From an uncultured Candidatus Saccharibacteria bacterium (lineage in GTDB: Bacteria > Patescibacteriota > Minisyncoccia > Phycocordibacterales > UBA918): a stretch of DNA of 64,000 bases. The notes under the pieces were generated by a model. The model saw only the letters and a list, made by a program, of their open reading frames with translations. It was not told the DNA's origin and searched no databases. Position 1 is the first letter of the stretch. Each line of letters starts with the position of its first letter. The position numbers were made by a program, and so were the translations under genes. The stretch is taken from contig CAYOAM010000003.1 of NCBI GenBank assembly GCA_964402035.1, positions 86,480-150,479 on the forward strand, in the 5' to 3' direction. This document shows, in pieces, positions 1,820-64,000 of this stretch.

Positions 1820-1929
1820 AATAAGTTACTGATCTTACTCTTAATAATAACATGTCCGATACCCATGGAAATACAGACGTGTGCATGTCTAAATATAATT
1901 TTTATATCAACAGATTGTATAACTCACAA

Positions 1930-1962
1930 AACAGCAAAAAAACCGCTTTCGCGGTCTTTTTG
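1930..1962. terminator. Bidirectional terminator-like hairpin between the two pilin genes
   Basis: ACCGC-TTTC-GCGGT hairpin flanked by an A-run and a T-run. Confidence 0.4.
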
Positions 1963-1983
1963 TTTCTTGTTGCTTACTACCAA

Positions 1984-2475
1984 TTATTCAACACAAGCAC
2001 CTGCCGCAACCTCTGCCGTTACGCCAGCCTGATCATTTGTGGCTATAGTCACTTGTTTCGACTTGCCAGTACTGTCAACACACCAACCTGTGAGTGGGTT
2101 GGTTTTTAATTGCGTCACGACTGCATAAGCAGCTTGATTGGCACTCGAACTGCAAGCATTTAGCCCTGCACTCGCAGCCTTAGCACTGTTGATCAACGTC
2201 AATACTTGGGGTTCCGCAAAAATAGCATCAGCCGACGCTGCGCAAGCACCAGCTGCAATTGCAGCAGCTGCGCAAGCACCAGCACCATCCCCATAACAAC
2301 TTCCTCGGTCAAACTCTATCTCAGCTTGAGAGCGTATTGCTGACATTTCTGACTTTACTTTTGCATCAGCACCCTTTGATCGTGCAGTATTGAGCGAAGC
2401 CAACACAACCGAAGCCAAGATACCGATAATAGCGATCACGACGAGGAGTTCGATAAGGGTGAAACCTCTTTTCAT
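1984..2475 (-). CDS. Type IV pilin, paralog of 1400..1819
   Basis: MKRG/FTLIELLVVIAIIGILASVVLASLNTARSKGAD... The N-terminal 35 aa are near-identical to the neighbouring pilin, with a divergent Ala/Cys-rich C-terminus. Start at the second Met (weak AAAGAG SD); the ORF could extend to 2499. Confidence 0.8.
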   Translation of the reverse strand: MKRGFTLIELLVVIAIIGILASVVLASLNTARSKGADAKVKSEMSAIRSQAEIEFDRGSCYGDGAGACAAAAIAAGACAASADAIFAEPQVLTLINSAKAASAGLNACSSSANQAAYAVVTQLKTNPLTGWCVDSTGKSKQVTIATNDQAGVTAEVAAGACVE

Positions 2476-2626
2476 ACTCTTTTTTATATTAATAGACATA
2501 ATTGATCTAGATGTTACTAAAACTCTTTATTAGCTAATGTTTACCACGAGTTTAGTGGTTCCCCCCATTATACGCCTTTCCCAACGGGTTTTCCGTTACC
2601 CTGTGGAAAACAAATCTTTTGTATGC

Positions 2627-3835: not shown

Positions 3836-3838
3836 ATG

Positions 3839-4909: not shown

Positions 4910-4911
4910 AA

Positions 4912-5298
4912 TTATTCTTTCTTTTTCTTATGGGCAAAGACTGATTTTACTTGGGCGACAACTTCACTCGGAATCACATTTGCTTTGATAATGTACCCGT
5001 CAGCGCCTAATGCTTTTGCCTCTTCGACATCTTCTTTCTCACCCTGGTTTGAAAGGACAATACACACCGGATCTGCACCGAGCGACTCGGACTTTATGGC
5101 ACGCAAAAGATCCATGCCATTGAGATGCGGCATGATCATATCCAGAAGTACAATGTCGTATGTTTTTCCTCCACGCAATTTTGAAAGTGCTTCTTCAACA
5201 CTCTTTGAGGTGTCTACATTAAACTCAGACTCGCCAAACTTGACCGCGTACATATCGAGTAAAAAAGAATCATCGTCAACGATCAGAATTTTTTCCAT
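4912..5298 (-). CDS. Single-domain response regulator (CheY-like receiver)
   Basis: MEKILIVDDDSFLLDMY...DIVLLDMIMPHLNGMDLL...GYIIK receiver signature. Start chosen at the internal Met, 7 nt after the pilB stop. Confidence 0.75.
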   Translation of the reverse strand: MEKILIVDDDSFLLDMYAVKFGESEFNVDTSKSVEEALSKLRGGKTYDIVLLDMIMPHLNGMDLLRAIKSESLGADPVCIVLSNQGEKEDVEEAKALGADGYIIKANVIPSEVVAQVKSVFAHKKKKE

Positions 5299-5305
5299 AT
5301 AAATA

Positions 5306-7126: not shown

Positions 7127-7145
7127 ACCACGATCACACTAGACA

Positions 7146-7451
7146 CTACTTCTTTTTTGGGTTGACCGGCAAGAATGGATTCTCACGCCCAGCGTCTTCT
7201 GGGATGTCAGGTTTGCGAATATCATCAAGTGAAGTGAACCGAGGATCGCTAAGAACATCACCTTTGAGCTCTATAGCTTTGAGCTGCTGCAGGGTTGCAA
7301 GAAATTCTTGTGCGCTCAACAGTGCCTCGCTCGTCGCAGCACCACTCACGGACGTCGCCGCATCATCAGTCTGAATAAAGACAACATACCCAAGATAGAG
7401 AATGACTGCGAGGCCGAGAGCGAGTAGTAAGTTACGAATGAGTCCTGACAT
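7146..7451 (-). CDS. Small membrane-anchored hypothetical protein in pilus operon (PilP-like position)
   Basis: 101 aa, N-terminal TM helix, Ser/Ala-rich. Synteny only; no family recognised. Confidence 0.45.
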   Translation of the reverse strand: MSGLIRNLLLALGLAVILYLGYVVFIQTDDAATSVSGAATSEALLSAQEFLATLQQLKAIELKGDVLSDPRFTSLDDIRKPDIPEDAGRENPFLPVNPKKK

Positions 7452-7454
7452 AGA

Positions 7455-8054
7455 TTATTTTGCTACACTGTTTACAAATGCATAGGTACGAAGTGTGATA
7501 TCGAATGTCATAAGATCACCTTCTGAGGCAGTAAATGTGAGATCCGTGACATCCAAAAACACCAGACTTTTTTCAAGATCGATCATCAGGGCGCGAAAAT
7601 CCTCGTACGTACCAAGAAGCCCAAGCTTAATATCGCGCGACGTATAGTGCTTTGGCACTTCTCCTTCAGGAGTAACGCCAACACTTGCTTCCGCAGCTGC
7701 TGCAGCGCGGCTACCCTTTGGAGCAACTTCCTTTGATTTTTCAACACTCACACTCGTGAGTGAGATTTTATGCATTCGCGTGAGCTCGTCCAAGTCTCGC
7801 ACGAGCGCTACTTCCTTGACCTCTGTCGGCAACATGGTCTTGAGGTTATCCATCGCCACCGGATCAAAACTCTTCATAAGATTGATTTTTCGCACCAACT
7901 CAGCTTGAAGAGCATCAGCTTGCTGTATGGCTTCGTCATATTCTGCCGACTGTTTCTGCACCTCCTTTACCGATTCAAACGTCGGTTTGATATACGTAAA
8001 ACCGAGACCGATGGCGATCAAGATTGCGATAATAGGTGCTAGTGCTTTAAACAT
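7455..8054 (-). CDS. pilO: PilO-like pilus assembly protein
   Basis: 199 aa, N-terminal TM helix then coiled coil. Position between pilN and pilB. Confidence 0.6.
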   Translation of the reverse strand: MFKALAPIIAILIAIGLGFTYIKPTFESVKEVQKQSAEYDEAIQQADALQAELVRKINLMKSFDPVAMDNLKTMLPTEVKEVALVRDLDELTRMHKISLTSVSVEKSKEVAPKGSRAAAAAEASVGVTPEGEVPKHYTSRDIKLGLLGTYEDFRALMIDLEKSLVFLDVTDLTFTASEGDLMTFDITLRTYAFVNSVAK

Positions 8055-8055
8055 A

Positions 8056-8742
8056 TTATGGATTTTGTACTTCGGTCACGGGAACCGTATCTGTCACAGG
8101 GTTTGGATCAAGGATGTCACCCTCATTTTCCTCTATATCTGGCAATACCTCGTAAGCCACAGCCTTTGGATCGAGTTCGGATGATACCTTAAACGTAATT
8201 TTGTCGTCTTCTTCGTCCTCGCCGGGCGTTATGGTTAAATCAGAAAAAATGAGGGAGCCCTCCTCAAACGATTTTTCTTCCTTGAACCCACGCTCTTGAA
8301 GGACGATGGTATTAAAGGTCGGTCCTGAACCAGCAAGCGCTACTTTTGCGGTACCAGATTCTTCACGTTTGAAACTAAAGCTAGTGAGCTCAACCTTTCC
8401 TTGTGTGCGCACCTCCAAGGCATCAAAAAGTCGTGTTAGTGAGAGATGCTGATTGAGGAGCAGATTCGCCGTTTGAAACTTATAGTCAAGATTGCGAATT
8501 TCCTCAATATTGGTCTGAGGAAATTTTGAGCGTTTTTCCGTAAGCGCTATTTTTTTTGCGGCCAAATCGTCCGCATTGTACTTTTTGTAAAAGAAGACCC
8601 CGACCGAAAGAGCGAGTGTTGCCAAAAAAATGGTCGTTGAGATAAAGGTGAGTACGTTGAAACTGCGGTGTTGACGTGAACCGCCAGCTGCGGGACCTGC
8701 AGACTGCTTTGGAATGAACGATGTTTGCGGAGTTGGAGGCAT
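8056..8742 (-). CDS. pilN: PilN-like pilus assembly protein
   Basis: Single TM, coiled coil, acidic C-terminus. Start set at internal Met 8742 (MPPTPQTS...); the longer ORF to 8835 would run into the palindrome. Confidence 0.6.
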   Translation of the reverse strand: MPPTPQTSFIPKQSAGPAAGGSRQHRSFNVLTFISTTIFLATLALSVGVFFYKKYNADDLAAKKIALTEKRSKFPQTNIEEIRNLDYKFQTANLLLNQHLSLTRLFDALEVRTQGKVELTSFSFKREESGTAKVALAGSGPTFNTIVLQERGFKEEKSFEEGSLIFSDLTITPGEDEEDDKITFKVSSELDPKAVAYEVLPDIEENEGDILDPNPVTDTVPVTEVQNP

Positions 8743-8791
8743 TGTTACCAGTATAAAGATAATGTGTCTGTATTGATAGCAAACGATGTGG

Positions 8792-8841
8792 ACATGAATG
8801 CACGGTGTGCCAAAATATTTTGGCACACCGTGCATTCATGT
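8792..8841. promoter_or_regulatory. 50-bp perfect palindrome in the pilM-pilN intercistronic region
   Basis: ACATGAATGCACGGTGTGCCAAAAT|ATTTTGGCACACCGTGCATTCATGT, verified base by base. No flanking U-run. Confidence 0.6.
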
Positions 8842-8969
8842 AGATAATTCTAAGCACACTAAAAATTTCAGATACGAGGCGCCAAGGAACGAGGACCCGA
8901 GTCGTACCTGATGTACGGTGAGCGGTACGAGTGACGATGGTAACGACGTAGATGGATTTTTTGGTGTGC

Positions 8970-10076
8970 TTAGCGTTCAGAAAGTCGTCGGAGCGCAGCA
9001 CCAACAGCAACAGCAAACGAGGGTCCGATTGTTTTTAAGGTATCTTGAAGAAATGCAGGATATTCAACTTTTGCAAAGGGATCGGCATTAAGAATCCGAC
9101 GACCGAGTACATTTTGTGCATACTCCGCAACGCCCGCGAGCGTTGCTCCACCACCTGAAAGCATCACGGACGACACTGGTACGGCTCCGTTGGTACGCTC
9201 GTATGCCTCAAGCAAGCGTCGAGACTCGATAAACATACGTTCGAGCGGCAAACTGAGCGCACGCTCAATCCGCGGATTCTCATGCGCCAAAAGTCCCACT
9301 TGACGCTTCATTTCTTCAGCATCAGATATAGTGAGTTCGAGAGACTTTGAAAGAGCCGACGTGAGATCTTGTCCACCCACTGTAATACTGTGTGTTGCCT
9401 GCACAATACCTCCGGCCACGACATAGAGTTTTGTTGTTGCGGCACCGATGTCCATAATAAGTATGGTCTCATCAATCTTTTGCACGCTCGAACGGATGGT
9501 ACTAAAGACTTCTATTTCGTTAAAACTCGAAAGCATCCCCGCCCCCTCGATCACCGTCTTAAATTTGCTCAGCGCTTCATTGTGAATAGCGGCCAAGAGT
9601 ACACGAGTTGTTGTCACTCGCCCCGCTGATTCAGCCCCATTTTTATTAGGCACCACAAACCAATCGAGCGTCACCTGCGAGACGGGCACTGGCACATATT
9701 TGCGGGCTTCAATCGGTATCATCGCCTCAAGGAGTGCCGGATCCTCAACCTGGAGTGAAATCACCGTCACGAAACTTGCAGCATACGGGACCGCAACACC
9801 AACGTTGCGGCTTGTGACAGATGCTTCTCGTACAATATCCAACAGCGCCTCCGTTGTTTTTCCCGGCTCAAGATTGGTGGCACGACCGACGTCCACGTTT
9901 GCATACGGCCCAAGCTGCAGTTCTCCATACGTCTCCAAAACCGCTCGCTGATGCTCGCGACGTAGTTGCACAATCTTTATAGAAGAAGAACCAAAATCAA
10001 TACCAACGACACTACCGCCATGCGCAGGCGCGGCGGCATTAAATAATTTACCGAGTGACTTAAAAGACAGATCCAT
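8970..10076 (-). CDS. pilM: Type IV pilus assembly protein PilM (actin-like ATPase fold)
   Basis: 368 aa with N-terminal GIDFGSSSIKIVQL and the PilM/FtsA-like fold signature. First gene of the operon. Confidence 0.85.
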   Translation of the reverse strand: MDLSFKSLGKLFNAAAPAHGGSVVGIDFGSSSIKIVQLRREHQRAVLETYGELQLGPYANVDVGRATNLEPGKTTEALLDIVREASVTSRNVGVAVPYAASFVTVISLQVEDPALLEAMIPIEARKYVPVPVSQVTLDWFVVPNKNGAESAGRVTTTRVLLAAIHNEALSKFKTVIEGAGMLSSFNEIEVFSTIRSSVQKIDETILIMDIGAATTKLYVVAGGIVQATHSITVGGQDLTSALSKSLELTISDAEEMKRQVGLLAHENPRIERALSLPLERMFIESRRLLEAYERTNGAVPVSSVMLSGGGATLAGVAEYAQNVLGRRILNADPFAKVEYPAFLQDTLKTIGPSFAVAVGAALRRLSER

Positions 10077-53437: not shown

Positions 53438-54604
53438 CTAGCTCGTCTGCGCAGTACGTAGTGCTTCAATGCCAGGCAGCGTTCCTTTTTCTAGAAACGT
53501 AAGCATTGCTCCTCCAGCCGTTGAGACAAATGTAAACCGGTCAGTCAATGCGCTATCTTGGATTGACGCGACCGTATCTCCGCCACCAACAATCGAAATA
53601 CCTGGAGCATGTGCGACAGCTTGCGCAAACTGTTTAGTGCCCGCATCAAAGCCACGCTCATAATCACCCAAAGGACCATTCCATAATAGTGTCTCAACAA
53701 AACGCAGCTCTTCGGTCAGCATCGCTATGGTTTCCGGTCCAGCGTCCAAGATCGCATCATCGTGAGCAACTTCAGAAAGCTTACGCATCATAGGTCCTCC
53801 CGGCGTTAGTACCGCAACATCAATAGGCAACAAGAGTTTTGGATGCTGATACAGCGATGTTGTCTTGATATCAATGTCTGAGATTAACGATTTTCCGATA
53901 GATAAACCGTTTGCGACAAAAAAATTGTTCGCGAGCGCCCCACCAACAAAAACACGATCATACCGCTCGATCAAAAGCTCCACTAAGGGGAGTTTTGTCT
54001 CAAATTTTGCTCCCCCAAGTACAAAGAGCGAAGGTGATTTTGGTGTACGCGCCAATGACAAATGCTCCAATTCGTCCATAAAAAGCAGGCCCGCGTACGA
54101 CGGCAAAAATTTTGGTATTCCCACAATTGATGCATGCTCACGATGCGCGACAGAAAAAGCATCATTAACATATATATCGCCGTACGAAGCAAGCGTTTGT
54201 GCAAACGCAGGATCATTGTCTTTTTCACCCGGGTGCAACCGCAGATTCTCGAGCAGCAACAACTCCCCTTCTTTGAGCGACGCAATCTTTGCATCAACCT
54301 CGGGACCAACTGATGTTCCTACCCACGCGACAGGTATATAGGTATTCAAGACTTCGCATACCCCCTTCAGAGAATCGTCCGAAGACCCATCTGCCCGTGA
54401 ACTATGAGCGATAATAACGACTTTTGCTCCTGCAGCCCGTAACAGCTGCAATGTCGGTAAGGCTTTTTTTATACGAAACGTGTGTGTGACTGCGCCCTCT
54501 GCAGAAAGTGGCACATCAAGTCCTGCACGGACGAGCACACGCTTGCCGCGCAAATCTGTTCGTTCACTTATTTTATGAAGCAATGGTATGAAATCAACGT
54601 TCAT
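53438..54604 (-). CDS. pgk: Phosphoglycerate kinase
   Basis: VRAGLDVP and GGGDT motifs, full-length PGK conservation. Confidence 0.9.
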   Translation of the reverse strand: MNVDFIPLLHKISERTDLRGKRVLVRAGLDVPLSAEGAVTHTFRIKKALPTLQLLRAAGAKVVIIAHSSRADGSSDDSLKGVCEVLNTYIPVAWVGTSVGPEVDAKIASLKEGELLLLENLRLHPGEKDNDPAFAQTLASYGDIYVNDAFSVAHREHASIVGIPKFLPSYAGLLFMDELEHLSLARTPKSPSLFVLGGAKFETKLPLVELLIERYDRVFVGGALANNFFVANGLSIGKSLISDIDIKTTSLYQHPKLLLPIDVAVLTPGGPMMRKLSEVAHDDAILDAGPETIAMLTEELRFVETLLWNGPLGDYERGFDAGTKQFAQAVAHAPGISIVGGGDTVASIQDSALTDRFTFVSTAGGAMLTFLEKGTLPGIEALRTAQTS

Positions 54605-55373
54605 AGGTTGTCGTAATAATAGTACTAAAATCTAAAGGACGTAAGCTGGCACCTCCTACGAGAAAACCTTGACTGCCGCCTCCCGCTACGAGCGCTGCCA
54701 CATTCTTTTGATCAACTGACCCACCATAGAGAATGCGCACACGCTCTGCAGCACCTCGACCATAGAGATCCGTCAAAATCTTCCGGATAAAGAGCACCAT
54801 CTCATGTGCATCGTCGGGTGTTGCGGCTCGCGCAGTCGCGCTCGCTGTACTAATCGCCCACACCGGTTCATACGCAACTACCAGATGTGCGAGTTTAGTT
54901 GCGACTACGCCGCGCAGCGCAGCGCGCAGTTGCTCTTCGACAACACCAAAATATTTCCCTGAGGTGTCACGTTCGCGCTCTCCCACACAGACGACTGCAG
55001 TAAGTCCTGCTTTTAGGACAAGCGCCGTCTTTTTTTCAATTTCAAGATCTGTCTCTCCACGTGCACGACGTTCTGAATGCCCAATAATGACATGGGAAAC
55101 TCCAAAGCCCTGCAACATACCGACAGACACTTCCCCCGTCAATGCTCCCATAACTTCACTTGAAACATTTTGTGCTCCGAGCAATAGCGGACTTTTTCCT
55201 ATGTTTTTTTGCAAATCGGCCAGGTACACAAACGGTGGAGCAATAACAACCTCAGTTTCAGACACCTTTTTTAGATGCTTCTTAATCGCCAAAAAAAGCA
55301 CCTTCGCTTCTCCTAAAGCACGAGGATTCATTTTCCAATTGGCAATGATGAGCATTCCTCGATGTGTGCGCAT
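54594..55373 (-). CDS. tpiA: Triosephosphate isomerase
   Basis: IANWKMN, AYEPVWAIST and IGHSERR motifs; 11-nt overlap with pgk. Confidence 0.9.
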   Translation of the reverse strand: MRTHRGMLIIANWKMNPRALGEAKVLFLAIKKHLKKVSETEVVIAPPFVYLADLQKNIGKSPLLLGAQNVSSEVMGALTGEVSVGMLQGFGVSHVIIGHSERRARGETDLEIEKKTALVLKAGLTAVVCVGERERDTSGKYFGVVEEQLRAALRGVVATKLAHLVVAYEPVWAISTASATARAATPDDAHEMVLFIRKILTDLYGRGAAERVRILYGGSVDQKNVAALVAGGGSQGFLVGGASLRPLDFSTIITTTYER

Positions 55374-55433
55374 AGATAGTGTATCGGTATCGCAATTGTA
55401 CCATAGAGCAGACCTCGTAACTGCAAAGCAAAG

Positions 55434-56852
55434 CTAGTTCATCTCGCGCCACTCGATAAAGCGGTAGGTATCCGACGTATACGGTGTTAGAGGTGGCGGA
55501 CTCGACACCAGTGAACGATCATACGAATTGAAACGTGTAGTATATCCTGATGTCTGAACACCACCCGATACCCACTTTGTACCCTCACGTCCATTGCTGA
55601 CTATCGTACCCTGCACAGTGAGTGAGTTTCTAAATACGTATGGGTCAAGTGAATTGGGGCTCGTATTTGCAGCGGTGTAGTGGTTTCGTCCAAATCTACC
55701 GTTTTGTGCGATAAAAATACCTTTGATTGTCATATTATTCGGTGAATCAAGACCAATGAGTATAGAGTCCTCCGCGATCGCCAATATGCCCACAGACCCG
55801 TCGTTTGTGGTGTAGGTGATGTTATCGGGAATAATGATGCTTGGGTTCACACCAACAGTAATGACATTTGCGGCGGCGACCGTCACTTTTTTACTAATTA
55901 CCCCCTCAAGCCATACCTTATCTTCAACATACACGAGACTGCAACTTGGTGGTATGGGGTAGTTAGCAACAAATACTTCAGTGCGTATGACGTGTCTCTC
56001 AAATTGCCATCCTGCTTCAGTTGTATATCCTTGAAAATTTTCGGTATTGGTCACGCGATACACATCAAATGTGTCATTGTTCTTGAAAATAAGGTGATAC
56101 CCGTAGTTACCTGATGGGGCGATGTATCGACCGCCTGCAGAAACGGCTTTGGTTTTCATGTTCGTAAGATCAACCGATAAGCCCGCAAAACTAATAGGTG
56201 GCGATGGAAAACTCCAGAGCGCACTGTTAGGCCCCGCACCGAAAACACCATCCTCGGTGGAGTTTGGAGAGCAGCCAAATGTTGCCGTACATAGCCAATC
56301 CTCTAGGCCACTTGAAACACTTGAATTATTGGTACCATCCATACGTATACCTCCATTTGAATGATACGGACCAATAATGGTGCGATCAGCACCAGCCCAC
56401 ACATTTGAATTGATAATGTATGAGAACTCCGTCACCGTTGGGCGCGCGTATTTACCATAGACAGTACGCGGTACCGATGGGGCACTTGTCGAGACACCCG
56501 TTGAGAGAATGTCGATCGATGCAATGTCACCGCACACATTATTGCCGGTAATGTCAAGCGAGTATGTACCAATGAGACCCCCTTCTGGATCAAAATAATT
56601 GTGCACATAGGGTCCCGTTGTTGCTGTACCATTCGTCACATCATTGGGATAATGCGAAAGATACCATTTATAATAATCGAGACCAGCTTCAGCGACCGCT
56701 AGCGCTCGCTCTTTTTCAACTTTTGTATTTTCTGAACGATGTTCTGTAATAATAAATCCTAACAACGCACTCACCATGACAAAAAACACTGAGCCAAATA
56801 CCAACACGATAACAATCAGATAGCCACGTGAATATAATGATGTTGGATGCAT
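55434..56852 (-). CDS. Large pilus-associated protein with PilX-like N-terminus (minor pilin / tip protein candidate)
   Basis: SRGYLIVIVLVFGSVFFVMVSALLGFI N-terminal hydrophobic segment, then a 430-aa Gly/Asn/Thr-rich domain. Last gene of the pilB2-pilC2 cluster. Confidence 0.45.
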   Translation of the reverse strand: MHPTSLYSRGYLIVIVLVFGSVFFVMVSALLGFIITEHRSENTKVEKERALAVAEAGLDYYKWYLSHYPNDVTNGTATTGPYVHNYFDPEGGLIGTYSLDITGNNVCGDIASIDILSTGVSTSAPSVPRTVYGKYARPTVTEFSYIINSNVWAGADRTIIGPYHSNGGIRMDGTNNSSVSSGLEDWLCTATFGCSPNSTEDGVFGAGPNSALWSFPSPPISFAGLSVDLTNMKTKAVSAGGRYIAPSGNYGYHLIFKNNDTFDVYRVTNTENFQGYTTEAGWQFERHVIRTEVFVANYPIPPSCSLVYVEDKVWLEGVISKKVTVAAANVITVGVNPSIIIPDNITYTTNDGSVGILAIAEDSILIGLDSPNNMTIKGIFIAQNGRFGRNHYTAANTSPNSLDPYVFRNSLTVQGTIVSNGREGTKWVSGGVQTSGYTTRFNSYDRSLVSSPPPLTPYTSDTYRFIEWREMN

Positions 56853-56855
56853 ATA

Positions 56856-57476
56856 TTAAAATCTAGTTTTTAGATTGCGAGGTGCAGCGCTCGAGTTTAT
56901 TTTAAATTCACCAGGCGTCTGAATAGGGTTCACATTCACAATCATATTCACTTCAATATACCGTATATCGGTGATACTCGTCGTTGCAACTGCAGCACTC
57001 CCATTCTCAAGAAAATATAAAAACGTCGATGTGGCCTGTTCACCATTGCGAATATACTCCGAAATAGTGATGTGTTCATCAGGTGTCGTTGAACTATAAC
57101 CCACCGGTGTTCCTGTCGCATTATAAATATCCTTGTACAACGTGGTTGTGGCGAGATAGTAGCGAACATACTCGACGCTATTATCTCGATCAATATCACT
57201 ATAAAACGCAATCGTGCTGGTACCCATGAGAACCAACGGATACGTACCATCATCCCCGTAGGTCATTTCACGAAGATCGCGCGTAATCAGTGCCATACCC
57301 CGTCGTCCATTACTCACTTCATAGGTCTGCGCTATTGTGTATGCATTGGTTTTATATAAATAGTTAATCGAGGAAAAAATTGCAAGTATCGTGATCGTAA
57401 AGAGAGAGACGGTGACGACCACCTCAACAAGAGTGAAGCCGGTACGATGACTACGGTGTAAAAGAAACGTGCTCAT
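56856..57476 (-). CDS. Minor pilin / pseudopilin
   Basis: HRSHRTG/FTLVEVVVTVSLFTITILAIF prepilin motif; 206 aa. Confidence 0.7.
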   Translation of the reverse strand: MSTFLLHRSHRTGFTLVEVVVTVSLFTITILAIFSSINYLYKTNAYTIAQTYEVSNGRRGMALITRDLREMTYGDDGTYPLVLMGTSTIAFYSDIDRDNSVEYVRYYLATTTLYKDIYNATGTPVGYSSTTPDEHITISEYIRNGEQATSTFLYFLENGSAAVATTSITDIRYIEVNMIVNVNPIQTPGEFKINSSAAPRNLKTRF

Positions 57477-59227
57477 GGTGTAAGGACGATGACGTTTTGC
57501 TGCATACCACTGACTGAGAGCGGCGAGAGTGAATACGAAGTATATCCGGGAGCAGACACGTCGACGGTATACCCCACTGCGTTTGACATACCGCTAAAAA
57601 AAGTCTGTCCGCACGCTGACGATGTTTCTGTTTTATCAAATACTCCAGCATGCACACGTACGGTCGCGCCAGGAATCGATGCCCCTACTGCAGTGCGTAC
57701 ATGCACACGAAGGGAGTGTGTTGTATGAGGCTCGAGTATTAAAGTCGTGGTAGCTGCAACGCCAGGACTTAAAGCAAATGGCGTCACTGGACAAGCATCG
57801 CTAATATCGTACCCTTCGGCTTGACCATTGATCGAAATATCATATTGGTCCCATTCTAAATTATTGATTTGTACGACACCACTTGCATTAGTGGTGTGCG
57901 TTTTAGAATATTTCAAAACGGGAACTCCAAAAGTATCCGTACCAATATTTTTTGTCCCCTCAAGTGTGAACGTTATATCGGGAATAGGTACGTTTGCCAT
58001 CATGTACGAGAATCGCCATTCATGAACCTGAGGCGTGGCACTTCCATCAAGACTTTGCAAAACCGCCCCAATAGCAAGACGTGGATACGTCGCGACTGGC
58101 AACGTCGCAAGATCAACAGGACTCACGGTCAATCCCGCACTATTGCCAGGCAGATCACTATCTGGAATGAGCGTATACGCACCCGATCCATCCACTGCAT
58201 ATATATAGTATGCTGTTTGTGTTTGTGGATTCAAAACTTCAGACCATTCTGCACGCTCCCATGAAAGCAGCGAGGAAGCAGCTGGCTCAACTACAGTACT
58301 TGTTGCACTTCCCTCTGCTGCATACACGCCAAGCACATTGGTGAGTACCAAATCTCCCCCAAGGGCTTCAACAGATGATGACGATACGGTACCAGTCATA
58401 TCAGGAAATAATCTTGACGTTGTTTGCTCAGTCGGTGGCTCTACCGTCTTTACAGCAAGCGTACTGACCCGATCTATACCAAGATTGACTGTCGAAACAC
58501 CATTTGCTACGACCGCAACATGTGGTGGATTTGGATTTGGGTTCGATGTCGAGGCACTATATGTTTGATCCAAAGAATACCCTACTGCTGTAGCGCTCAC
58601 TTCATATCCACCTGACGCAGGTGCGCCGGGAAACATGGTAATCCCTGCAATGTTCGTGTACGAAGTCACATCGATTGTCGAAGTGGTCGTGTTGTTTACA
58701 ATCCGCACTGCTGCGCCGTCAACCGGTGCAGCTACCGCATCGAATACATTAACAACCAAGGTCCCTCCACCCGCCAGTGTTTCAATTCCTGGCGGGATCA
58801 AGTTCGTAATGAGCGCCACTTCATGAGGGACCCCTTTTATCGTCCACGACACCTCAACTTTTGCACGTTTATAATCGGCAGCAATGCCATTGCTATCAGC
58901 AACACCAGAACCATCCGATGGATCATCAACATATTGAACCAACACGCGTCGATTATATGAAATCCCATTAAGGTCTACAGTCGAATTCTGTGGAATAAGT
59001 CCAGCAGGAATACCCGCAACAGTGCCGACAGAGTCGTATGGAAGACCATGCATGTACTCAAGGTACTTGTTTGCAATCCCAACCGCGCCTGCTTGCGCAC
59101 GCGTCTGTGAACTTACTGCAAGCGTATATTGAAAAACGGTAAAAAGAGCGCCAAACACCACAAGCATGAGTGCAGAAGCAACCAGCACCTCGACAAGTGT
59201 CATGCCTCGCGTGCGGTGATTTTGCAT
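57473..59227 (-). CDS. Large minor pilin (PilV-like N-terminus with about 550-aa extracellular domain)
   Basis: MQNHRTRG/MTLVEVLVASALMLVVFGAL prepilin motif. Start chosen at a Met that avoids overlap with pilC2; the ORF extends to 59278. Confidence 0.6.
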   Translation of the reverse strand: MQNHRTRGMTLVEVLVASALMLVVFGALFTVFQYTLAVSSQTRAQAGAVGIANKYLEYMHGLPYDSVGTVAGIPAGLIPQNSTVDLNGISYNRRVLVQYVDDPSDGSGVADSNGIAADYKRAKVEVSWTIKGVPHEVALITNLIPPGIETLAGGGTLVVNVFDAVAAPVDGAAVRIVNNTTTSTIDVTSYTNIAGITMFPGAPASGGYEVSATAVGYSLDQTYSASTSNPNPNPPHVAVVANGVSTVNLGIDRVSTLAVKTVEPPTEQTTSRLFPDMTGTVSSSSVEALGGDLVLTNVLGVYAAEGSATSTVVEPAASSLLSWERAEWSEVLNPQTQTAYYIYAVDGSGAYTLIPDSDLPGNSAGLTVSPVDLATLPVATYPRLAIGAVLQSLDGSATPQVHEWRFSYMMANVPIPDITFTLEGTKNIGTDTFGVPVLKYSKTHTTNASGVVQINNLEWDQYDISINGQAEGYDISDACPVTPFALSPGVAATTTLILEPHTTHSLRVHVRTAVGASIPGATVRVHAGVFDKTETSSACGQTFFSGMSNAVGYTVDVSAPGYTSYSLSPLSVSGMQQNVIVLTP

Positions 59228-59240
59228 ATTAAACATATGG

Positions 59241-60470
59241 TTATGAGATGCCATCACCAACGGAATAGATAGGTGCAATCATCGCTAGTGCAAAGAAACC
59301 GACACCGCCACCTATCACCACCATAAGTAGCGGCTCAATGATCGTCGAGAGATCTTTTGTCTTGCGATCAACCTCAGACTCATAAAAATCCGCAACCTCA
59401 AGGAGCATATTCGAAATTTGCCCCGTCTCTTCCCCCACCGAAATCATCTCTCCCACTAAGACTGGATAAAGATCCGTGCGTTCAATGAACACCTCCGAGA
59501 GCGATTTGCCTTTTTCAACGCGCACGGCAGCTTCCTTGATAATTTCTTTATAAAATGTGTTTTGTACGACATCACCCGTGATTGTAAGTGCCCCAACAAC
59601 ATCAACACCTGAAGAAAGTAACGAGGAAAGTGTGCGCGCAGTACGTGCGGAATTTACCTCTTTTGCAATATTTCCGATAACCGGAAGACGCACCAAGACC
59701 CATTCAAAACCGCGCCTCCCACGCTTGGTCCGCAAGAGTGACACAAACCCAAAGATGACGAGTGCAATAATGCCAAATGCGGCAAGCGTGTGCTGACTCA
59801 AGAAATCGCTGATTGCAATAATGACTTTTGTTGGGAGTGGCAGATCAATTTTCATCTCTTTGAATGTCGAGGTGAGTGTCGGCACCACATAGATCATCAT
59901 CAAAATACCAATGAGAAACATGATGGCAATGACGATCAAAGGATAGATCATGGCCCCCCTCACTTTTTTTCGAAGTTCCGACGAACGATGGAGTTCGGTG
60001 CCGATGATCGTAAGCGCTTCGGCGAGCGTGCCCCCCTCTTCTCCCGCTCGTACCATCGCAATATAGAGCGAAGAAAAAACTTTTGGATGGCGTGCAAGCG
60101 CCACGTTGAGCTGATCGCCTTTGTTGATATCTTCACGAAGCGAAACCAACACGGATTTCAATTTCAAATTTTTTGTTTGCCGCTCCGCAACCGAAAATGC
60201 ACGGGTGAGTGCAAGTCCGGCTTTGAGCATCGCTGAGAGGTTGCGCGTGAACATCACCAACTCATCACGCTTCACACGTGCAAGGGCTACATTAATGCGG
60301 TCCATCTTGATAAATGCCGAAAAAGAAAACTTCCCTTCCTCGCTTATGGAAATAACTTCGTGGCCATTTTTGCGCGCCACATCATACACATCATAACGAT
60401 CAGCAACTTCCACTTCTTGCTCCACGATGGTGCCGTCAGCTGCTTTTCCTTTATAGGTAAATTTTTTCAC
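59241..60470 (-). CDS. Second GspF-family pilus platform protein
   Basis: 409 aa, GspF domain duplicated, 3 TM helices. About 30% similar to the first pilC. Confidence 0.85.
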   Translation of the reverse strand: MKKFTYKGKAADGTIVEQEVEVADRYDVYDVARKNGHEVISISEEGKFSFSAFIKMDRINVALARVKRDELVMFTRNLSAMLKAGLALTRAFSVAERQTKNLKLKSVLVSLREDINKGDQLNVALARHPKVFSSLYIAMVRAGEEGGTLAEALTIIGTELHRSSELRKKVRGAMIYPLIVIAIMFLIGILMMIYVVPTLTSTFKEMKIDLPLPTKVIIAISDFLSQHTLAAFGIIALVIFGFVSLLRTKRGRRGFEWVLVRLPVIGNIAKEVNSARTARTLSSLLSSGVDVVGALTITGDVVQNTFYKEIIKEAAVRVEKGKSLSEVFIERTDLYPVLVGEMISVGEETGQISNMLLEVADFYESEVDRKTKDLSTIIEPLLMVVIGGGVGFFALAMIAPIYSVGDGIS

Positions 60471-60493
60471 AAAAAGATATTTAGTAAATATGT

Positions 60494-62242
60494 TTATTCC
60501 GAAATAACACGGAGAACTTCTTCTATGGAAGTACGTTTTTGTGCAGCCTTAAAAATCCCATCTTCAACCATCGTCAACATCCCCTCTTTTCGCGCTTGTA
60601 CTTGGATCTCATCTGCCGTTGCATTGCGCATCACCATCTCTTTGAGTGAATTGCTCATGAGCAGTACTTCGTGAATACCGATTCGTCCCTTGTACCCATC
60701 CTCACACTCCGTTGACGCTTTCGGTCGATAAAACGGAATGTTGTTCCACTTTGTTTTTTCATCAATTACTTTTTCGTCGCGCATCACCTGCATCACATGT
60801 TCAAAATCAACATGCTTATCAAGATCCGCCTTCTCTTCTGCCGATAGAAAATATTCTTCTGCTTCGCCACAAAGCTGTCGCACCAAACGCTGCCCGATGA
60901 TGACGCGCAGTGTCGATACGAGGAGAAATGGTTCCATACCCATGTCGCTCAAACGAGCGACTGTTGCGGCAGCTGAGTTCGTGTGCACGGTTGCAAAGAG
61001 CAAGTGTCCCGTGAGCGCTGCATTGACGGCAAGTGACGCCGTTTCTGTATCGCGAATTTCTCCAACCATGATAACGTCAGGGTCTTGACGCATGAGTGAA
61101 CGCAGACCATTCGCAAAGGTGAAGCCCACATTGGGACGCACCTGCGTCTGGTTGATGCGAGGCATCTGATACTCGATCGGATCTTCAATGGTTGAGATAT
61201 TCACTTCGGGCGTATTCAAAACATCGAGCGCAGTGTAGAGCGTTGTTGTCTTTCCAGAACCCGTCGGACCAGTAACCAAGATCATACCCGTCGTTTGCTT
61301 TGTTGCACGATGAATACGCTCGAGTGATTCTCCATGGAAACCTAAACCTTCGAGCGTATAGCCATTGCGCCCTTCACGCAACAGACGCATGACGATCTTT
61401 TCCCCAAAATAGACTGGGAGAACCGACACGCGAAATGCGACTTTCTGTCCCTCAACTTCCATTTTAAATCGTCCGTCTTGCGGTACTCGTTTTTCATCGA
61501 GCTTGAGGTTTGAAAGCACCTTGATACGCGCAACAATCGTTGGCGCAGCACGAGGTGGCAGCGTCATAGCGTCTCGCAAAATACCGTCGATACGATAACG
61601 GACCAGCACCTCGTTCTCCATCGGCTCAATGTGAATATCTGACGCATTCTGCATGATGGCATGCCGCAAGAGTGTATCGACAATACGCACTACCGGCAGA
61701 TCTTCCGCCATTTTCTTGAGATCTTCCTCACTCGTCTCATCGCCCCCTTCCTCCAAGACCTTGAGCGCAGCCGTCTCCTTCATAATGATGTCGCCAAACT
61801 CATCCTTGAGCGTTTTTTGGTACTGACGAAGCGCAATTTTCATTGACTCCGTGTCTGTGAGTCGTGGCAAAATCTTGAGTCCCACCTTTTTCTTAATAAA
61901 ATCGATCGCGGGAAGATCAGCAGTATCGAGCATCGCAACCTCAAGTGAGTCTGCGTGTTTCTCAAATGCAATAATGTTGTGGTTGCGCGCAACCGGTTCG
62001 GGGATGAGCGAGAGCACCTCAAAATCAATCTTGCGATCGGCAAGTGCAATAAACGGAATCCCTAGAACATATGACTCGACACGACGAAGATCATCTTCAC
62101 TGATCGAACCTTGGTTCACGAGCGCTGTTGCAAGCGAGATGTGACTATCTTTTGCAATTTTCGCTGCCGCATCAATATCTTTTTGAGATACGAGGCCGGA
62201 GTCTAGAATGAACCGCTTCAATTGTGTGTCTTGTATACGCAT
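60494..62242 (-). CDS. Second GspE-family pilus/pseudopilus assembly ATPase
   Basis: N-terminal T2SSE_N domain, Walker A GPTGSGKTTT, tetracysteine-less GspE core. Start at internal Met MRIQDTQ. Confidence 0.9.
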   Translation of the reverse strand: MRIQDTQLKRFILDSGLVSQKDIDAAAKIAKDSHISLATALVNQGSISEDDLRRVESYVLGIPFIALADRKIDFEVLSLIPEPVARNHNIIAFEKHADSLEVAMLDTADLPAIDFIKKKVGLKILPRLTDTESMKIALRQYQKTLKDEFGDIIMKETAALKVLEEGGDETSEEDLKKMAEDLPVVRIVDTLLRHAIMQNASDIHIEPMENEVLVRYRIDGILRDAMTLPPRAAPTIVARIKVLSNLKLDEKRVPQDGRFKMEVEGQKVAFRVSVLPVYFGEKIVMRLLREGRNGYTLEGLGFHGESLERIHRATKQTTGMILVTGPTGSGKTTTLYTALDVLNTPEVNISTIEDPIEYQMPRINQTQVRPNVGFTFANGLRSLMRQDPDVIMVGEIRDTETASLAVNAALTGHLLFATVHTNSAAATVARLSDMGMEPFLLVSTLRVIIGQRLVRQLCGEAEEYFLSAEEKADLDKHVDFEHVMQVMRDEKVIDEKTKWNNIPFYRPKASTECEDGYKGRIGIHEVLLMSNSLKEMVMRNATADEIQVQARKEGMLTMVEDGIFKAAQKRTSIEEVLRVISE

Positions 62243-62394
62243 AGCGCACTCACCAAAAGTGAAGTGAATGACTTTAGTATAGCAAGCACTCGCAGAAAAA
62301 AATGCACACAATTATTTTTTACGTGTATAAAAAATAATTGTGTGCCGAAGCAAATGCCCCGTGCATAAAACGCAGCAAAATTGTTTGAGCACTT

Positions 62395-62949
62395 CTAGCT
62401 CGCCATCCGCATTTTGTCTGGCGTATCTGGTCGCAATGTATGAATTATGCGCTCCACTAAAAAGACAGGACTACTTGCATCATCAGGAGTAATGAGCAAC
62501 CTATCACCTCGTTCATCTTTCAAAGGATTTTTGGTGATGTCGAATAAAATACGCGCACCTCGTTCATCTTCAATAAAACAATCGACACCATGTTTGGTAT
62601 CTAACAAGGAACCACGCGAATCAAACAAAGTCAGATGATCCAACCCCTTCTCTTGAAGTAGATGTAGAATTCTGCCCATCACGCTATGCACCGGAGGCAC
62701 TATAGGCCCACGTGCATGTACAAATCTCAGTGCATGCAGGAAATCATCATATTTTTCTAAAGTTTTTGAAAACCGGAACTGAGAAGGGCCCAGCACATCA
62801 TCTTCAAACTGATGACCTGTCTCATCTGAATATAAATCCTCTACACTTTTAATACTCTCACCAGCTGTTGAAACACCTCTCACATTTTCTTTTCGAACGA
62901 GCTGTGGAACCGGTGGTTTTGCTCTGAAATTTTGTTCCCCTAAACGCAT
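62395..62949 (-). CDS. Hypothetical protein upstream of second pilus cluster
   Basis: 184 aa from Met 62949, soluble, no TM, no family recognised. Co-directional and 83 bp upstream of pilB2. Confidence 0.35.
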   Translation of the reverse strand: MRLGEQNFRAKPPVPQLVRKENVRGVSTAGESIKSVEDLYSDETGHQFEDDVLGPSQFRFSKTLEKYDDFLHALRFVHARGPIVPPVHSVMGRILHLLQEKGLDHLTLFDSRGSLLDTKHGVDCFIEDERGARILFDITKNPLKDERGDRLLITPDDASSPVFLVERIIHTLRPDTPDKMRMAS

Positions 62950-63269
62950 AGGGATAGTATAGCAATAATTTTGTACATGCCTCAATTCTAGAATCAATAC
63001 TATAGCAGTAACGTTTCTATTTTTTGACAAACCCAAAAAAGAGAGTACTATGAGGGGACCTGTTTCTGTCGACCGCGCGGTCGGCATTTTTGTTAGGAAA
63101 CTGCGGGAAATTTTATAAAAATACCAAGTAAAATAAGGGTTTTTATAAAATCGATGCCATACGAGACGCCGACGAGTAAAGATCCCGAGGCGTATTTGAT
63201 ATACGATGAGGGTCTTTGCAAGGAAGGCAACGATGTAGGGCGCGATTTTAGGAAAACCCGCACCATATT

Positions 63270-64000
63270 ATGTTTGATTTAAAGGTAATAAATTCGGTAA
63301 TCGATCAACTCGAAGAAGAGCGGGGTATTCCACGTGCCAAAATGATCGATGCCGTGGAGCAAGCGCTCGCAACCGCCTATAAAAAGGAGTTTGGGAAACG
63401 CGGACAGATCGTACGTGCCAAGTTTGATATTACAACTGGCACCACGGAGTTCAACCAGATCAAGATTGTAGTGGATGAAACGACCATTTTTGAGAGCGAT
63501 GAAGCGCTCCCTGAAGAGCCAGAGCGCGACCGCCGTGAGTCTCGCGAAGCCGCCGAAAAAGTACCCACCGAAGACGCACGTGTACGCTTTGACCCTGAAA
63601 AACACATAATGATCGCTGATGCGCGCTATATAAAGAACGATGTGAAAGTGGGCGACGAACTGGTGTTCCCGCTTGAGTCAAAGGACGACTTTGGTCGTAT
63701 TGCCGCACAAACTGCTAAGCAGGTCATCATCCAGAAGATTCGTGAAGCAGAAAAAGAGTCAGCACTTGCTGAATTTGAAAAGAAAGAAGGCGAAATTATC
63801 GTTGGTATAGTGCAGCGCTTTGAACGCGGCAATCTCTATGTAGATCTCGGACGTATAACGGGCGTGATGCCATACGACCAGCAGATCCCCGGGGAACGCT
63901 ACCGACCAGGTGAGCGCATCCGTGCACTTCTCCTCTCGGTTGAAGAAACACCACGCGGCATTTTCCTCAAATTGTCACGATCACACCCTGATTTCCTCGC
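63270..64000 (+). CDS. nusA: Transcription termination/antitermination factor NusA (5' part, continues past window)
   Basis: MFDLKVINSVIDQLEEERGIPRAKMIDAVEQALATAYKKEFGKRGQIVRAKFD (NusA N-terminal domain), then S1-like GEIIVGIVQRFERGNLYVDLG. Confidence 0.85.
   Translation, partial: MFDLKVINSVIDQLEEERGIPRAKMIDAVEQALATAYKKEFGKRGQIVRAKFDITTGTTEFNQIKIVVDETTIFESDEALPEEPERDRRESREAAEKVPTEDARVRFDPEKHIMIADARYIKNDVKVGDELVFPLESKDDFGRIAAQTAKQVIIQKIREAEKESALAEFEKKEGEIIVGIVQRFERGNLYVDLGRITGVMPYDQQIPGERYRPGERIRALLLSVEETPRGIFLKLSRSHPDFL

Follow-up and report, generated by a model that had tools for sequence, protein, structure and literature searches.

The closest described counterparts of the locus analysed here are tip pilins with large inserted domains and pilus systems with a second assembly apparatus. 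ComZ of Thermus thermophilus (pilA1-3/comZ/pilA4 locus, PDB 6QVI) is a competence-associated, GspK-like tip pilin with an inserted β-solenoid (PMC6561018). The same β-solenoid design is found in cyanobacterial PilX, which has been proposed to plug the tip in place of PilY1 as part of FimT-PilW-PilV-PilX priming complexes; in these organisms, distinct minor-pilin sets specify distinct filaments (bioRxiv 10.64898/2026.02.12.705559). The T4P-2 system of Saccharibacteria (TM7x) represents a second, thin and non-essential pilus (PMC11623550).

Here we describe an ultrasmall Patescibacteria bacterium carrying a second type IV pilus motor joined to three large, putative tip pilins. The window, i.e., the whole stretch of DNA analysed, is 64 kb long and part of a contig that measures at least 462 kb, and the inventory of pilins and PilMNO covers this window. 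Its relevant features are as follows:

62304..62345, minus strand: intrinsic terminator (inverted repeat and RNA fold) that ends the transcript of a 184-aa ORF and forms the 5′ boundary of the operon
62275..62285, minus strand: extended −10 promoter-like motif TTGCTATACTA, 32 nt 5′ of the ATPase ATG (motif count)
60494..62242, minus strand: PilB2, PilB/GspE-type assembly ATPase of 582 aa with an N-terminal MshEN (N1) domain (Pfam)
59241..60470, minus strand: PilC2, PilC/GspF-type inner-membrane platform of 409 aa with two T2SSF domains (Pfam, 4.9e-60)
57473..59236, minus strand: modular minor pilin of 584–587 aa with class III leader RG|MTLVE, α1 helix, pilin head and four β-sandwich domains
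56856..57476, minus strand: minor pilin of 206 aa (GspJ/PilW/ComGE-like candidate) with a canonical TG|FTLVE site
55434..56852, minus strand: ComZ/PilX/GspK-type cap pilin of 472 aa with leader RG|YLIVIV, lacking Glu5
364..10076, minus strand: cluster 1, encoding PilM, a PilN-like protein, PilO, PilB1, a response regulator, PilT, PilC1, two major-type pilins (171 and 139 aa) and PilD

The five genes from pilB2 to the 472-aa pilin (cluster 2) form a minus-strand operon. Reading of the sequence showed closely spaced ORFs, with gaps of 23 nt between ATPase and platform, about 5 nt between platform and the 584-aa gene and 3 nt between the 206-aa and 472-aa genes, while the 584-aa and 206-aa genes overlap by 4 nt. 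It was from these tight junctions, together with the terminator and the promoter-like motif at the 5′ end, that the operon architecture was deduced. The terminator consists of two 18-nt arms in perfect inverted repeat, separated by a 6-nt spacer and followed by a T7 run (U7); its RNA fold contains 19 pairs at −27.8 kcal/mol (z −8.19), a value equalled by none of 200 shuffles. The motif TTGCTATACTA occurs six times in the window compared to 0.56 expected occurrences (six were reached in 0/100 shuffles), every time just 5′ of a gene start, and probably functions as a promoter element. The first-pass annotation had regarded the upstream 184-aa ORF (62949..62395) as co-transcribed with the cluster. 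This is very unlikely, since a strong terminator and a promoter-like motif lie in between and no homolog of the ORF was found in 80 related loci; it would rather constitute a separate, non-conserved transcription unit.

PilB2 matched T2SSE (PF00437, 5.8e-127) and MshEN (1.9e-12) and has intact Walker motifs. Its NCBIfam scores for PilB (537 bits) and GspE (532 bits) are nearly identical, and neither reaches the equivalog cutoff. The ATG at 62242, also chosen by gene callers, is most likely the start codon rather than the TTG at 62311. PilC2 scored 331 bits for GspF and 294 bits for PilC, each below its own cutoff. With identities of 36% (PilB2 to PilB1) and 33% (PilC2 to PilC1), the pair can be classified on sequence grounds as old paralogs of the cluster-1 motor and platform. 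A second ATPase-platform pair followed by three large pilin-like genes, with no PilT, PilMNO or major-pilin-sized gene inside the cluster, had been proposed at the outset, and all of this was borne out: the ORF list and a motif scan of the 64-kb window revealed neither PilT, PilMNO, PilD nor a major pilin in or near cluster 2, and the three pilin-like proteins have the appearance of tip components.

Only two of these three proteins carry the full prepilin motif that had been claimed for all of them. The predicted site G|(F/M)(T/S)LxE is conserved in the 584-aa (G|MTL) and 206-aa (G|FTL) pilins, both of which matched N_methyl above the Pfam cutoff, but not in the 472-aa protein, whose N-terminus reads R-G|YLIVIVLVFG. 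The 584-aa gene could begin at any of three ATG codons (59227, 59236 or 59254), gene callers opting for a 587-aa product; Glu5 is kept in 55 of 63 orthologs. Its structure model places CnaB/transthyretin-like and glycan-binding-like domains behind the helix and head: D1 is transthyretin/CnaB-like, D2 a lectin-like jelly roll resembling Fbs1/CBM, D3 SpaA-like and D4 CarboxypepD_reg, so that three of the domains would be of the transthyretin/CnaB type. The distal domains are the least conserved part of the protein, and some orthologs have a pentaxin/LamG module added distally. In the 206-aa pilin, N_methyl (1.5e-5) is detected also in 66 of 76 orthologs; Glu5 is kept in all 76 and Gly(−1) in 73 of them. 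Matches of this family to gspJ (20 members), ComGE (26) and others were sub-threshold and confined to the N-terminus, and in a profile search against the PDB the α1 helix alone gave a match.

The 472-aa protein was modelled as an α1 helix (residues 11–67), a four-stranded pilin head, a large ice-binding-protein-like β-solenoid and a conserved last strand (464–470). Its orthologs possess Gly(−1) in 59 of 61 cases and Glu at +5 in 0 of 63, a combination that corresponds to the GspK/PilX signature. Neither ComZ nor the TM7x proteins PilX1 and PilX2 are predicted to be processed by PilD (PMC6561018, PMC11623550). Thermus ComZ was by a wide margin the best structural match of the model; the global TM-score is only 0.29, owing to a different arrangement of the domains relative to each other. 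Sequence identity to ComZ amounts to 12–14%, and a profile search against PDB sequences returned no match. The globular part of the family is strongly acidic (median pI 4.6, net charge −17).

The genes of cluster 2 are real and unusually conserved, as all five are kept in the same order in 73–81 related loci. As a cassette with tpiA-pgk behind it, the cluster is present in 80 related species genomes. Conservation is highest for PilB2 (median identity 73% in 72 related loci), PilC2 reaches 59%, and the cap pilin, at 55%, exceeds tpiA or pgk (48%). Motor, platform and pilins constitute one unit in all 73 loci that include the flank. Downstream of the cassette, at a distance of about 2–8 kb, recJ is present in 61 and comEC in 53 of 81 related loci; both genes also lie downstream of cluster 2 in the window, while this linkage is lacking at L004 as well as at the distant loci L085–L087. 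In distant Patescibacteria, PilM-N-O (L085, L086) or a canonical 161-aa pilin (L087) directly follows the same cassette, which is therefore part of a genuine type IV pilus.

Taken as a whole, cluster 2 probably encodes a second motor for type IV filament assembly along with a priming/tip complex of its own. The gene content of the two clusters is complementary: Pfam matches in cluster 1 comprise PilM_2, PilO (weak), two T2SSE, Response_reg, T2SSF, two N_methyl and A24_N_bact with Peptidase_A24, so that all major pilins of the window, together with PilD, PilT and PilMNO, are located there. Across the window, the motif scan detected no more than five N-termini of class III type: two in cluster 1, neither of them a minor pilin, and three in cluster 2, which holds the only minor pilins. 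This distribution agrees with the earlier suggestion that cluster 2 may borrow the major pilins of cluster 1. PilD of cluster 1 would process the prepilins of 584 and 206 aa and might also act on the 472-aa protein. Via their α1 helices, the three pilins would join on PilC2 into an initiation complex similar to GspI/J/K or PilV/W/X, although they number three and not four as in a full FimU/FimT-PilV-W-X set. The Glu5-less 472-aa protein may sit on top as a cap, its rigid β-solenoid acting as the 'tip plug' proposed for Thermus ComZ and cyanobacterial PilX. PilB2 would then power polymerisation of cluster-1 major pilins beneath the tip complex, yielding a filament or a short pseudopilus that spans the cell envelope. 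The 584-aa pilin may extend a stalk of Ig-like domains with a lectin-like module at its end, and the variable distal part of this pilin would be the likeliest ligand-binding (adhesive) element. The near-invariant cap may mainly serve assembly or have a structural role, and could additionally bind some universal ligand, for instance DNA.

The latter option leads to a tentative alternative that differs from the preferred reading in ligand and purpose alone and otherwise overlaps with it: a dedicated DNA-uptake (competence) pilus or pseudopilus, in which the ComZ-like cap is the DNA receptor at the tip and retraction by cluster-1 PilT hands the DNA over to ComEC, serving transformation or the scavenging of nucleotides. 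The closest structural match is indeed a competence-specific, DNA-binding tip pilin (PMC6561018), the linkage to recJ and comEC fits, extreme conservation of the cap suits a universal ligand, and Patescibacteria are naturally competent via ComEC and thought to employ type IV pili (PMC10633639). However, the strong acidity of the cap family speaks against DNA binding, and the β-solenoid fold does not specify it, because motility/EPS pili of cyanobacteria use the same PilX design (bioRxiv 10.64898/2026.02.12.705559). The recJ/comEC linkage, absent from L004 and L085–L087, may mirror nothing but general conservation of gene order. Moreover, T4P-2 mutants of Saccharibacteria stay normally competent (PMC11623550), and type IV pilus genes in this group are essential independently of comEC (PMC10633639).

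We consider it unlikely that the three minor pilins simply prime a single cluster-1 pilus, with PilB2/PilC2 being redundant or condition-specific and only one kind of filament produced. Priming complexes are generally required (bioRxiv 10.64898/2026.02.12.705559), yet cluster 1 lacks minor pilins, and in distant lineages, where PilMNO or a major pilin is its immediate neighbour, the cassette looks like the principal pilus operon. Against this, the unit intact in 73 loci and the top conservation of PilB2 argue for a specific partnership of motor and tip complex, and PilB2/PilC2 are merely 33–36% identical to their cluster-1 counterparts. Considerably less probable still is a type II secretion-like pseudopilus, i.e., a GspE/GspF-driven piston with a GspI/J/K-like tip pushing proteins through the wall of a single-membrane cell. 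Such systems have been annotated in Saccharibacteria (PMC10633639), GspF is the top NCBIfam match of the platform, and the ATPase scores almost as high for GspE as for PilB; but the equivalog cutoffs for both are missed, GspC/D/L/M and a GspG-like major pseudopilin are lacking in the cluster (no further prepilin ORFs within ±9 kb of the cassette in 80 loci), distant relatives pair the cassette with PilMNO and a T4a-type pilin, and large Ig-like/lectin-like modules fit an exposed tip better than a piston. Membership in the ComG type, proposed in the first-pass annotation from a comGA-comGB-pseudopilin layout, is most improbable and was rejected, since, despite a similar order of ATPase, platform and pilins without PilT/PilMNO and weak, sub-threshold ComGE/ComGD/ComGF matches at the N-terminal helices, the ATPase (252 bits for ComGA, cutoff 300, covering only residues 213–478 of the 605-aa ORF) is of the full-length PilB/GspE type and carries MshEN as an additional N-terminal domain, the platform stays below the ComGB cutoff (145 versus 240 bits), a ComGC-like major pilin is absent from the cluster, and the pilins (206–587 aa) have folds unlike ComGD-G. 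A link to competence returns by another route, namely the ComZ fold predicted for the 472-aa protein.

The preferred reading, a second motor with its own tip complex, can be set against known systems. As in the T2SS GspI-GspJ-GspK tip complex (PDB 3CI0) and P. aeruginosa FimU-PilVWX, three minor (pseudo)pilins are encoded side by side; one subunit, with about 200 aa, matches GspJ in length, a likeness by size and not an assignment to GspI/GspJ. The insertion of GspK is α-helical and located at another point, whereas that of the 472-aa protein is a β-solenoid (PMC6561018); in contrast to T2SS, secretin and GspC/L/M are absent. Streptococcus sanguinis, also a single-membrane cell, grafts adhesive modules onto pilins (PilB with vWA, PilC with lectin; PMC8179133), but the modules found here, transthyretin/CnaB-like beads and an Fbs1/CBM-like jelly roll, have no sequence relationship to them. 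TM7x shares with our bacterium two PilB/PilC pairs in a Patescibacteria genome, a second system without its own retraction ATPase, large, non-canonical 'PilX' pilins at the tip that contain lectin-like domains, and adjoining recombination genes (recA/recX in TM7x, recJ/comEC here). Unlike cluster 2, locus 2 of TM7x encodes a dedicated PilM2N2O2, while the pilins of that system are found at another locus together with the major pilin PilA2. PilX2 is a β-propeller and PilX1 a jelly roll, neither being a β-solenoid, and TM7x pilins show little conservation between phyla, while the cassette pilins are 42–55% identical across at least 80 species.

With ComZ, the 472-aa protein has in common a GspK-like head with a large ice-binding-protein-like triangular β-solenoid, the lack of a canonical PilD/Glu5 motif and other minor pilins encoded alongside. 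It differs in showing no detectable sequence homology, in domain orientation and in its acidity, with DNA binding being putative; furthermore, its host has one membrane and no secretin, and its gene is joined in one operon to those of a dedicated PilB/PilC motor. Cyanobacterial PilX (Com and EPS subfamilies) is likewise a PilX-type minor pilin interrupted by a β-solenoid, although it belongs to sets of four minor pilins instead of three and the partner pilin here bears four extra Ig-like/lectin-like domains. In cyanobacteria, two minor-pilin sets rely on a common motor, while the set described here is physically coupled to a second motor.

Cluster 2 comprised five head-to-tail open reading frames on the minus strand (62242..55434), with junctions, in cassette order, of 23, about 5, –4 and 3 nt (gap or overlap):

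62242 (most likely start ATG, also used by the gene callers on the source contig), minus strand: PilB2 ATPase, 582 aa
60470..59241, minus strand: PilC2 platform, 409 aa, two T2SSF domains
59236/59227..57473, minus strand: 584-aa pilin (587 or 584 aa), leader ...RTRG/MTLVE
57476..56856, minus strand: 206-aa pilin, leader ...HRTG/FTLVE
56852..55434, minus strand: 472-aa protein (the cap pilin), leader ...YSRG/YLIVIV

The first two products form a motor of the type IV filament superfamily. The ATPase matched Pfam T2SSE (5.8e-127; 423.8 bits vs. a cutoff of 24.9), carried an N-terminal MshEN domain, and its translation contained GPTGSGKT and DPDVIMVGEIRD as Walker A and B motifs. The platform matched T2SSF in two stretches (201.4 bits vs. 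25.2). Both proteins remained below the NCBIfam equivalog cutoffs (ATPase: PilB 536.9 vs. 675.65, GspE 531.7 vs. 630.25; platform: GspF 331.2 vs. 424, Thermus-type PilC 294 vs. 700), indicating a divergent lineage inside the superfamily. A second motor is encoded in cluster 1 (364..10076, minus strand), which contains PilM, a PilN-like protein, PilO, PilB1, a response regulator, PilT, PilC1, two major-type pilins and PilD. PilB2 and PilB1 were 36% identical, PilC2 and PilC1 33%, and the two motors are old paralogs. Binding of c-di-GMP by the MshEN domain was considered and is not claimed, as the NCBIfam motif scored 23.2 bits vs. a cutoff of 38 and the motif was imperfect by eye.

At one end the five-gene operon is delimited by a terminator and a promoter-like motif, at the other by tpiA. 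The elements concerned were the following:

62345..62304, minus strand: terminator hairpin, perfect 18-bp arms, 19 pairs in the RNA fold, then U7
62395-62949, minus strand: 184-aa open reading frame, with its own copy of TTGCTATACTA 6 nt before the ATG and a strong terminator
62275-62285 and 62955-62965, minus strand: TTGCTATACTA, the former after the hairpin and before the ATPase gene
18176-18186, 27604-27614, 34221-34231 and 35841-35851, plus strand: further copies of TTGCTATACTA

The first-pass annotation had regarded the 184-aa reading frame as co-transcribed upstream of the cassette. This assignment had to be abandoned: the hairpin (fold energy –27.8 kcal/mol, z –8.2), the sole find of a repeat scan, lies between this frame and the ATPase gene, and the 184-aa product had neither a Pfam, NCBIfam or PHROGs match nor a homolog in 80 related loci. 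Together with the promoter-like motifs, these findings mark it as a separate, lineage-specific transcription unit outside the system, and the motif directly before the ATG suggests that its transcript is leaderless. An Rfam search of 54000..64000 (E ≤ 0.1) gave no match. On the other side, tpiA follows 60 nt downstream of the cassette with its own –10-like element (TGgTACAAT); no terminator was found in between. The TTGCTATACTA sequence resembles an extended –10 motif (TGnTATACT), and its six copies in the window compare with 0.56 expected. Nearly every copy lay between a few and about 30 nt 5′ of a start codon. It is probably the main promoter element of the organism, and several of the genes it precedes may be leaderless.

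Other genes in the window deserve mention in their own right. Three small paralogous reading frames in tandem (37955-39446, minus strand) are inserted in the otherwise classic region from fusA (39601-41748) to tuf (36447-37640); these uncharacterised, membrane-anchored proteins have in common the N-terminus MD(Q/E)KY..SVAILAVVAFGVS.FSLGQVIG and, at the other end, a domain that contains Cys. A 252-aa protein (26808-27566, plus strand) is anchored in the membrane by its N-terminus and carries dockerin-like repeats of the calcium-binding type at its C-terminus (DLNHDGKHGIADISIFL..., DFNQDGSVDTGDLSII); it may be a cell-surface docking protein. A secreted, C-terminally anchored 408-aa protein with thrombospondin-type-3-like Asp-rich repeats (29407-30633, minus strand) adjoins a histidine kinase (28080-29354) and a response regulator (27640-28017). 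Finally, a tRNA-Ile with anticodon TAT (16879-16953, plus strand) reads AUA directly, a solution that bacteria use less often than a CAT anticodon modified with lysidine.

The N-termini divided the three pilin-like proteins into two kinds. The 584-aa and 206-aa proteins carried a class III signal (short basic leader, Gly(–1), hydrophobic α1N, Glu5) and exceeded the Pfam N_methyl cutoff of 21.2 with 25.0 and 24.8 bits, respectively. Among orthologs, Gly(–1) was present in 60/60 and Glu5 in 55/63 members of the 584-aa family, and in 73/76 and 76/76 members of the 206-aa family. A PilD with A24_N_bact and Peptidase_A24 domains is encoded at 364..1275. The 472-aa family retained Gly(–1) in 59 of 61 orthologs, followed by Tyr or Phe at +1, and Glu5 occurred in none of 63, all of which had Leu, Ile, Val, Thr or Met at +5. 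The expectation that the PilD site (G/FTL, G/MTL) is intact in all three thus held for the 584-aa and 206-aa proteins and failed for the 472-aa protein. A pilin-like N-terminus with Gly(–1) and without Glu5 is the pattern of GspK/PilX-type cap subunits. The Thermus pilin ComZ is likewise not a predicted PilD substrate (PMC6561018).

For the 472-aa protein, structure prediction alone was informative. It had no Pfam, NCBIfam or PHROG match, just two weak PilX_N matches were obtained when 63 orthologs were searched against Pfam, and a profile of these orthologs retrieved nothing from all PDB sequences at E ≤ 10. The family itself is large and remarkably well conserved (>2115 homologs, 645 clusters at 50% identity, nearly all about 470 aa, mean column identity 67%), and it alone among the three pilin families had conserved cysteines, four in number and invariant in its alignment; the 206-aa pilin had none. 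The AlphaFold model was confident (pLDDT 87.6, pTM 0.83) and consisted of a 57-residue N-terminal helix, four β-strands, a long series of short strands and a final strand. In their order along the chain, these elements (head strands at 82-136, a solenoid at 145-443 and a highly conserved strand at 464-470) fit a solenoid placed, as in ComZ and PilX, between the penultimate and last strands of the pilin sheet. Structural comparison of the model yielded the following scores:

Thermus ComZ: 16.9 (299 residues aligned)
DUF3494 ice-binding β-solenoids: 13-15
GspK: 10.0
S. sanguinis minor pilin PilA: 9.1
XcpX: 8.5
Tapirins: 7-8

The predicted structure thus combines a GspK-like pilin head with a triangular β-solenoid resembling ice-binding proteins. 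In an independent Foldseek search, ComZ alone matched strongly, with an E-value of 2.7e-11; because the relative domain orientation differs, the global TM-score to ComZ was low (0.29). ComZ is described as a DNA-binding tip pilin in which an ice-binding-protein-like β-solenoid is inserted ahead of the last strand of a GspK-like pilin fold (PMC6561018). The same design was described for all cyanobacterial PilX proteins, in which the solenoid has been suggested to plug the tip in the manner of PilY1 (bioRxiv 10.64898/2026.02.12.705559). We therefore place the 472-aa protein architecturally in the ComZ/PilX class. Identity in the structural alignments with ComZ was 12–14%, and in the absence of demonstrable sequence homology the likeness is one of architecture, common descent being unproven.

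The AF2 model of the 584-aa pilin (pLDDT 90.6) showed an α1 helix (11-61), a small pilin head and four successive β-sandwich domains (D1–D4). Ortholog identity fell from about 60% in the proximal parts to about 38% in the distal D2 and D4. Furthermore, about one in ten orthologs reached ~960 aa (proteins P0209 and P0222 and about 10 more, e.g., in the related loci L009 and L014) and carried DUF2341 and a pentaxin/LamG domain (concanavalin-like lectin) at the C-terminus after residue 590, a module that the pilin has gained distally. Such a pattern of conservation and extension is what a modular pilin should show if its distal end contacts a variable ligand. The 206-aa protein had a canonical pilin N-terminus, beyond which nothing was matched; its profile reached only the α1 helix of geopilins in the PDB, and NCBIfam gave nothing but sub-cutoff matches, split between ComGE, GspJ, Verru_Chthon C and further models. 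We infer a GspJ/PilW-like role solely from its size and position.

A scan with one genome per species revealed 428 loci encoding the 472-aa family, and the cassette was found in at least 428 species genomes. The relatives were labelled Kaiserbacteria, Paceibacterota, Nomurabacteria or Parcubacteria. In the best 80 of the 428 loci the order ATPase–platform–584–206–472–tpiA–pgk was kept, and recJ (61/81 loci analysed) and comEC (53/81) were found downstream. Median identities of the related loci to the window proteins were:

ATPase: 73%
platform: 59%
472-aa pilin: 55%
recJ: 52%
206-aa pilin: 48.5%
pgk: 48%
tpiA: 48%
comEC: 44%
584-aa pilin: 42%

It is unusual that a putative tip pilin is better conserved than glycolytic enzymes. 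This favours a structural or assembly function of the cap, or a universal ligand, over a host-specific adhesin. The three pilin genes were co-located and co-conserved in 76–81 loci, which is at most circumstantial evidence that the cap would top a heterotrimer or tetramer with I/V- and J/W-type subunits. In the window itself, ComEC (49219-50739, minus strand) is a 506-aa protein with the Pfam domains DUF4131 and Competence only. About 2 kb downstream, a 291-aa Lactamase_B gene (46329-47204, minus strand) encodes what we take to be the usual C-terminal nuclease domain of ComEC, which thus appears to be split over two genes.

Examination of the reading frames and flanks confirmed that cluster 2 has neither a major-pilin-sized gene nor PilMNO, as noted in the first-pass annotation, and 80 related loci yielded no further prepilin frames over a span of ±9 kb. 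Cluster 1 has no minor pilins; the only ones in the window belong to cluster 2. This complementary content supports, and does not prove, the use of cluster-1 PilD, PilT, PilMNO and major pilins by cluster 2. On the best reading, cluster 2 provides a second motor for assembly together with a priming/tip complex of its own. The Glu5-less β-solenoid protein would cap this complex, the 206-aa and 584-aa pilins would lie beneath it, and cluster-1 major pilins would polymerise below these minor pilins, with the 584-aa pilin displaying a lectin-like, variable distal end. In distant Patescibacteria, PilM-PilN-PilO directly follows the cassette (loci L085, 5108-13955, and L086, 188-7591), or a canonical 161-aa pilin does (L087, 4117-12013), and the cassette therefore belongs to a true type IV pilus. 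The cap pilins of these three loci were 29–37% identical to the query P0359, a distant family member that shares 33% identity with the window protein; the L087 cassette encodes a shorter ATPase (424 aa) and includes an additional 406-aa non-pilin membrane protein.

The filament may serve in adhesion, in DNA capture or in both. The structural match of the cap to ComZ and the linkage to recJ and comEC point to DNA capture, although this linkage is lost in L085–L087 and in a further related locus (L004). A basic DNA-binding surface, sought via pI, was not found; in each of the three pilin families the globular part was instead strongly acidic (median pI 4.0–4.6, net charge –9 to –38 in the ortholog alignments A1–A3), and the acidity of the cap family (median pI 4.62) speaks against DNA capture. 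ComZ is described as having no obvious basic patch (PMC6561018). Moreover, the cap fold also serves cyanobacterial non-competence pili, the second, thin pilus of Saccharibacteria (T4P-2) is dispensable for competence (PMC11623550), and type IV pilus genes of Saccharibacteria are essential independently of comEC (PMC10633639). It seems unlikely that the cassette builds an autonomous, Patescibacteria-specific, short pseudopilus of minor pilins only, with the near-invariant, ComZ-like β-solenoid cap as the universal contact device of the ultrasmall cells (a DNA/nucleotide-scavenging receptor feeding ComEC, or a means of host-envelope engagement); if true, this would explain a cap conserved above glycolytic enzymes across hundreds of species.

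Among known systems, a ComG competence pseudopilus, to whose comGA–comGB–pseudopilin layout cluster 2 had been likened, was rejected. The ATPase reached 252.4 bits for ComGA (cutoff 300; match confined to residues 213-478) and the platform 145.4 bits for ComGB (cutoff 240). The ComG operon combines ComGC with the small pilins ComGD–G, whereas the pilins of cluster 2 measure 206–587 aa and no ComGC-like, major-pilin-sized prepilin frame was detected in cluster 2 or within ±9 kb in the 80 related loci. A type II secretion system was likewise dismissed on equivalog scores below cutoff and gene content, the five-gene operon lacking the secretin GspD, GspC/L/M and GspG.

A large part of bacterial diversity belongs to the Patescibacteria (CPR), which are mostly uncultured and are believed to rely on type IV pili for contacting hosts and taking up DNA. 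So far, only Saccharibacteria have been studied by experiment; two pilus systems are already known from them, and their pilins show poor conservation elsewhere (PMC11623550). By its description, T4P-2 of Saccharibacteria TM7x pairs PilB2/PilC2 with a PilM2N2O2 of its own and encodes PilA2 and a β-propeller PilX2 at a separate pilin locus (PMC11623550), whereas cluster 2 and its flanks have no PilMNO and the cap is a predicted β-solenoid. Cap pilins of the latter kind are already known from Thermus and cyanobacteria; among the papers listed in a literature search, none linked ComZ with Patescibacteria, CPR or Parcubacteria. The cassette is thus a solid, widely conserved, unannotated module and not a new principle. 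Our analysis defines it as a five-gene cassette of the Paceibacteria/Kaiserbacteria branch, and its cap pilin family, which has no Pfam family and a ComZ/PilX β-solenoid architecture, offers a concrete and widely applicable annotation target; the analysis also extends the β-solenoid tip-plug design from Deinococcota and Cyanobacteria to single-membrane bacteria.
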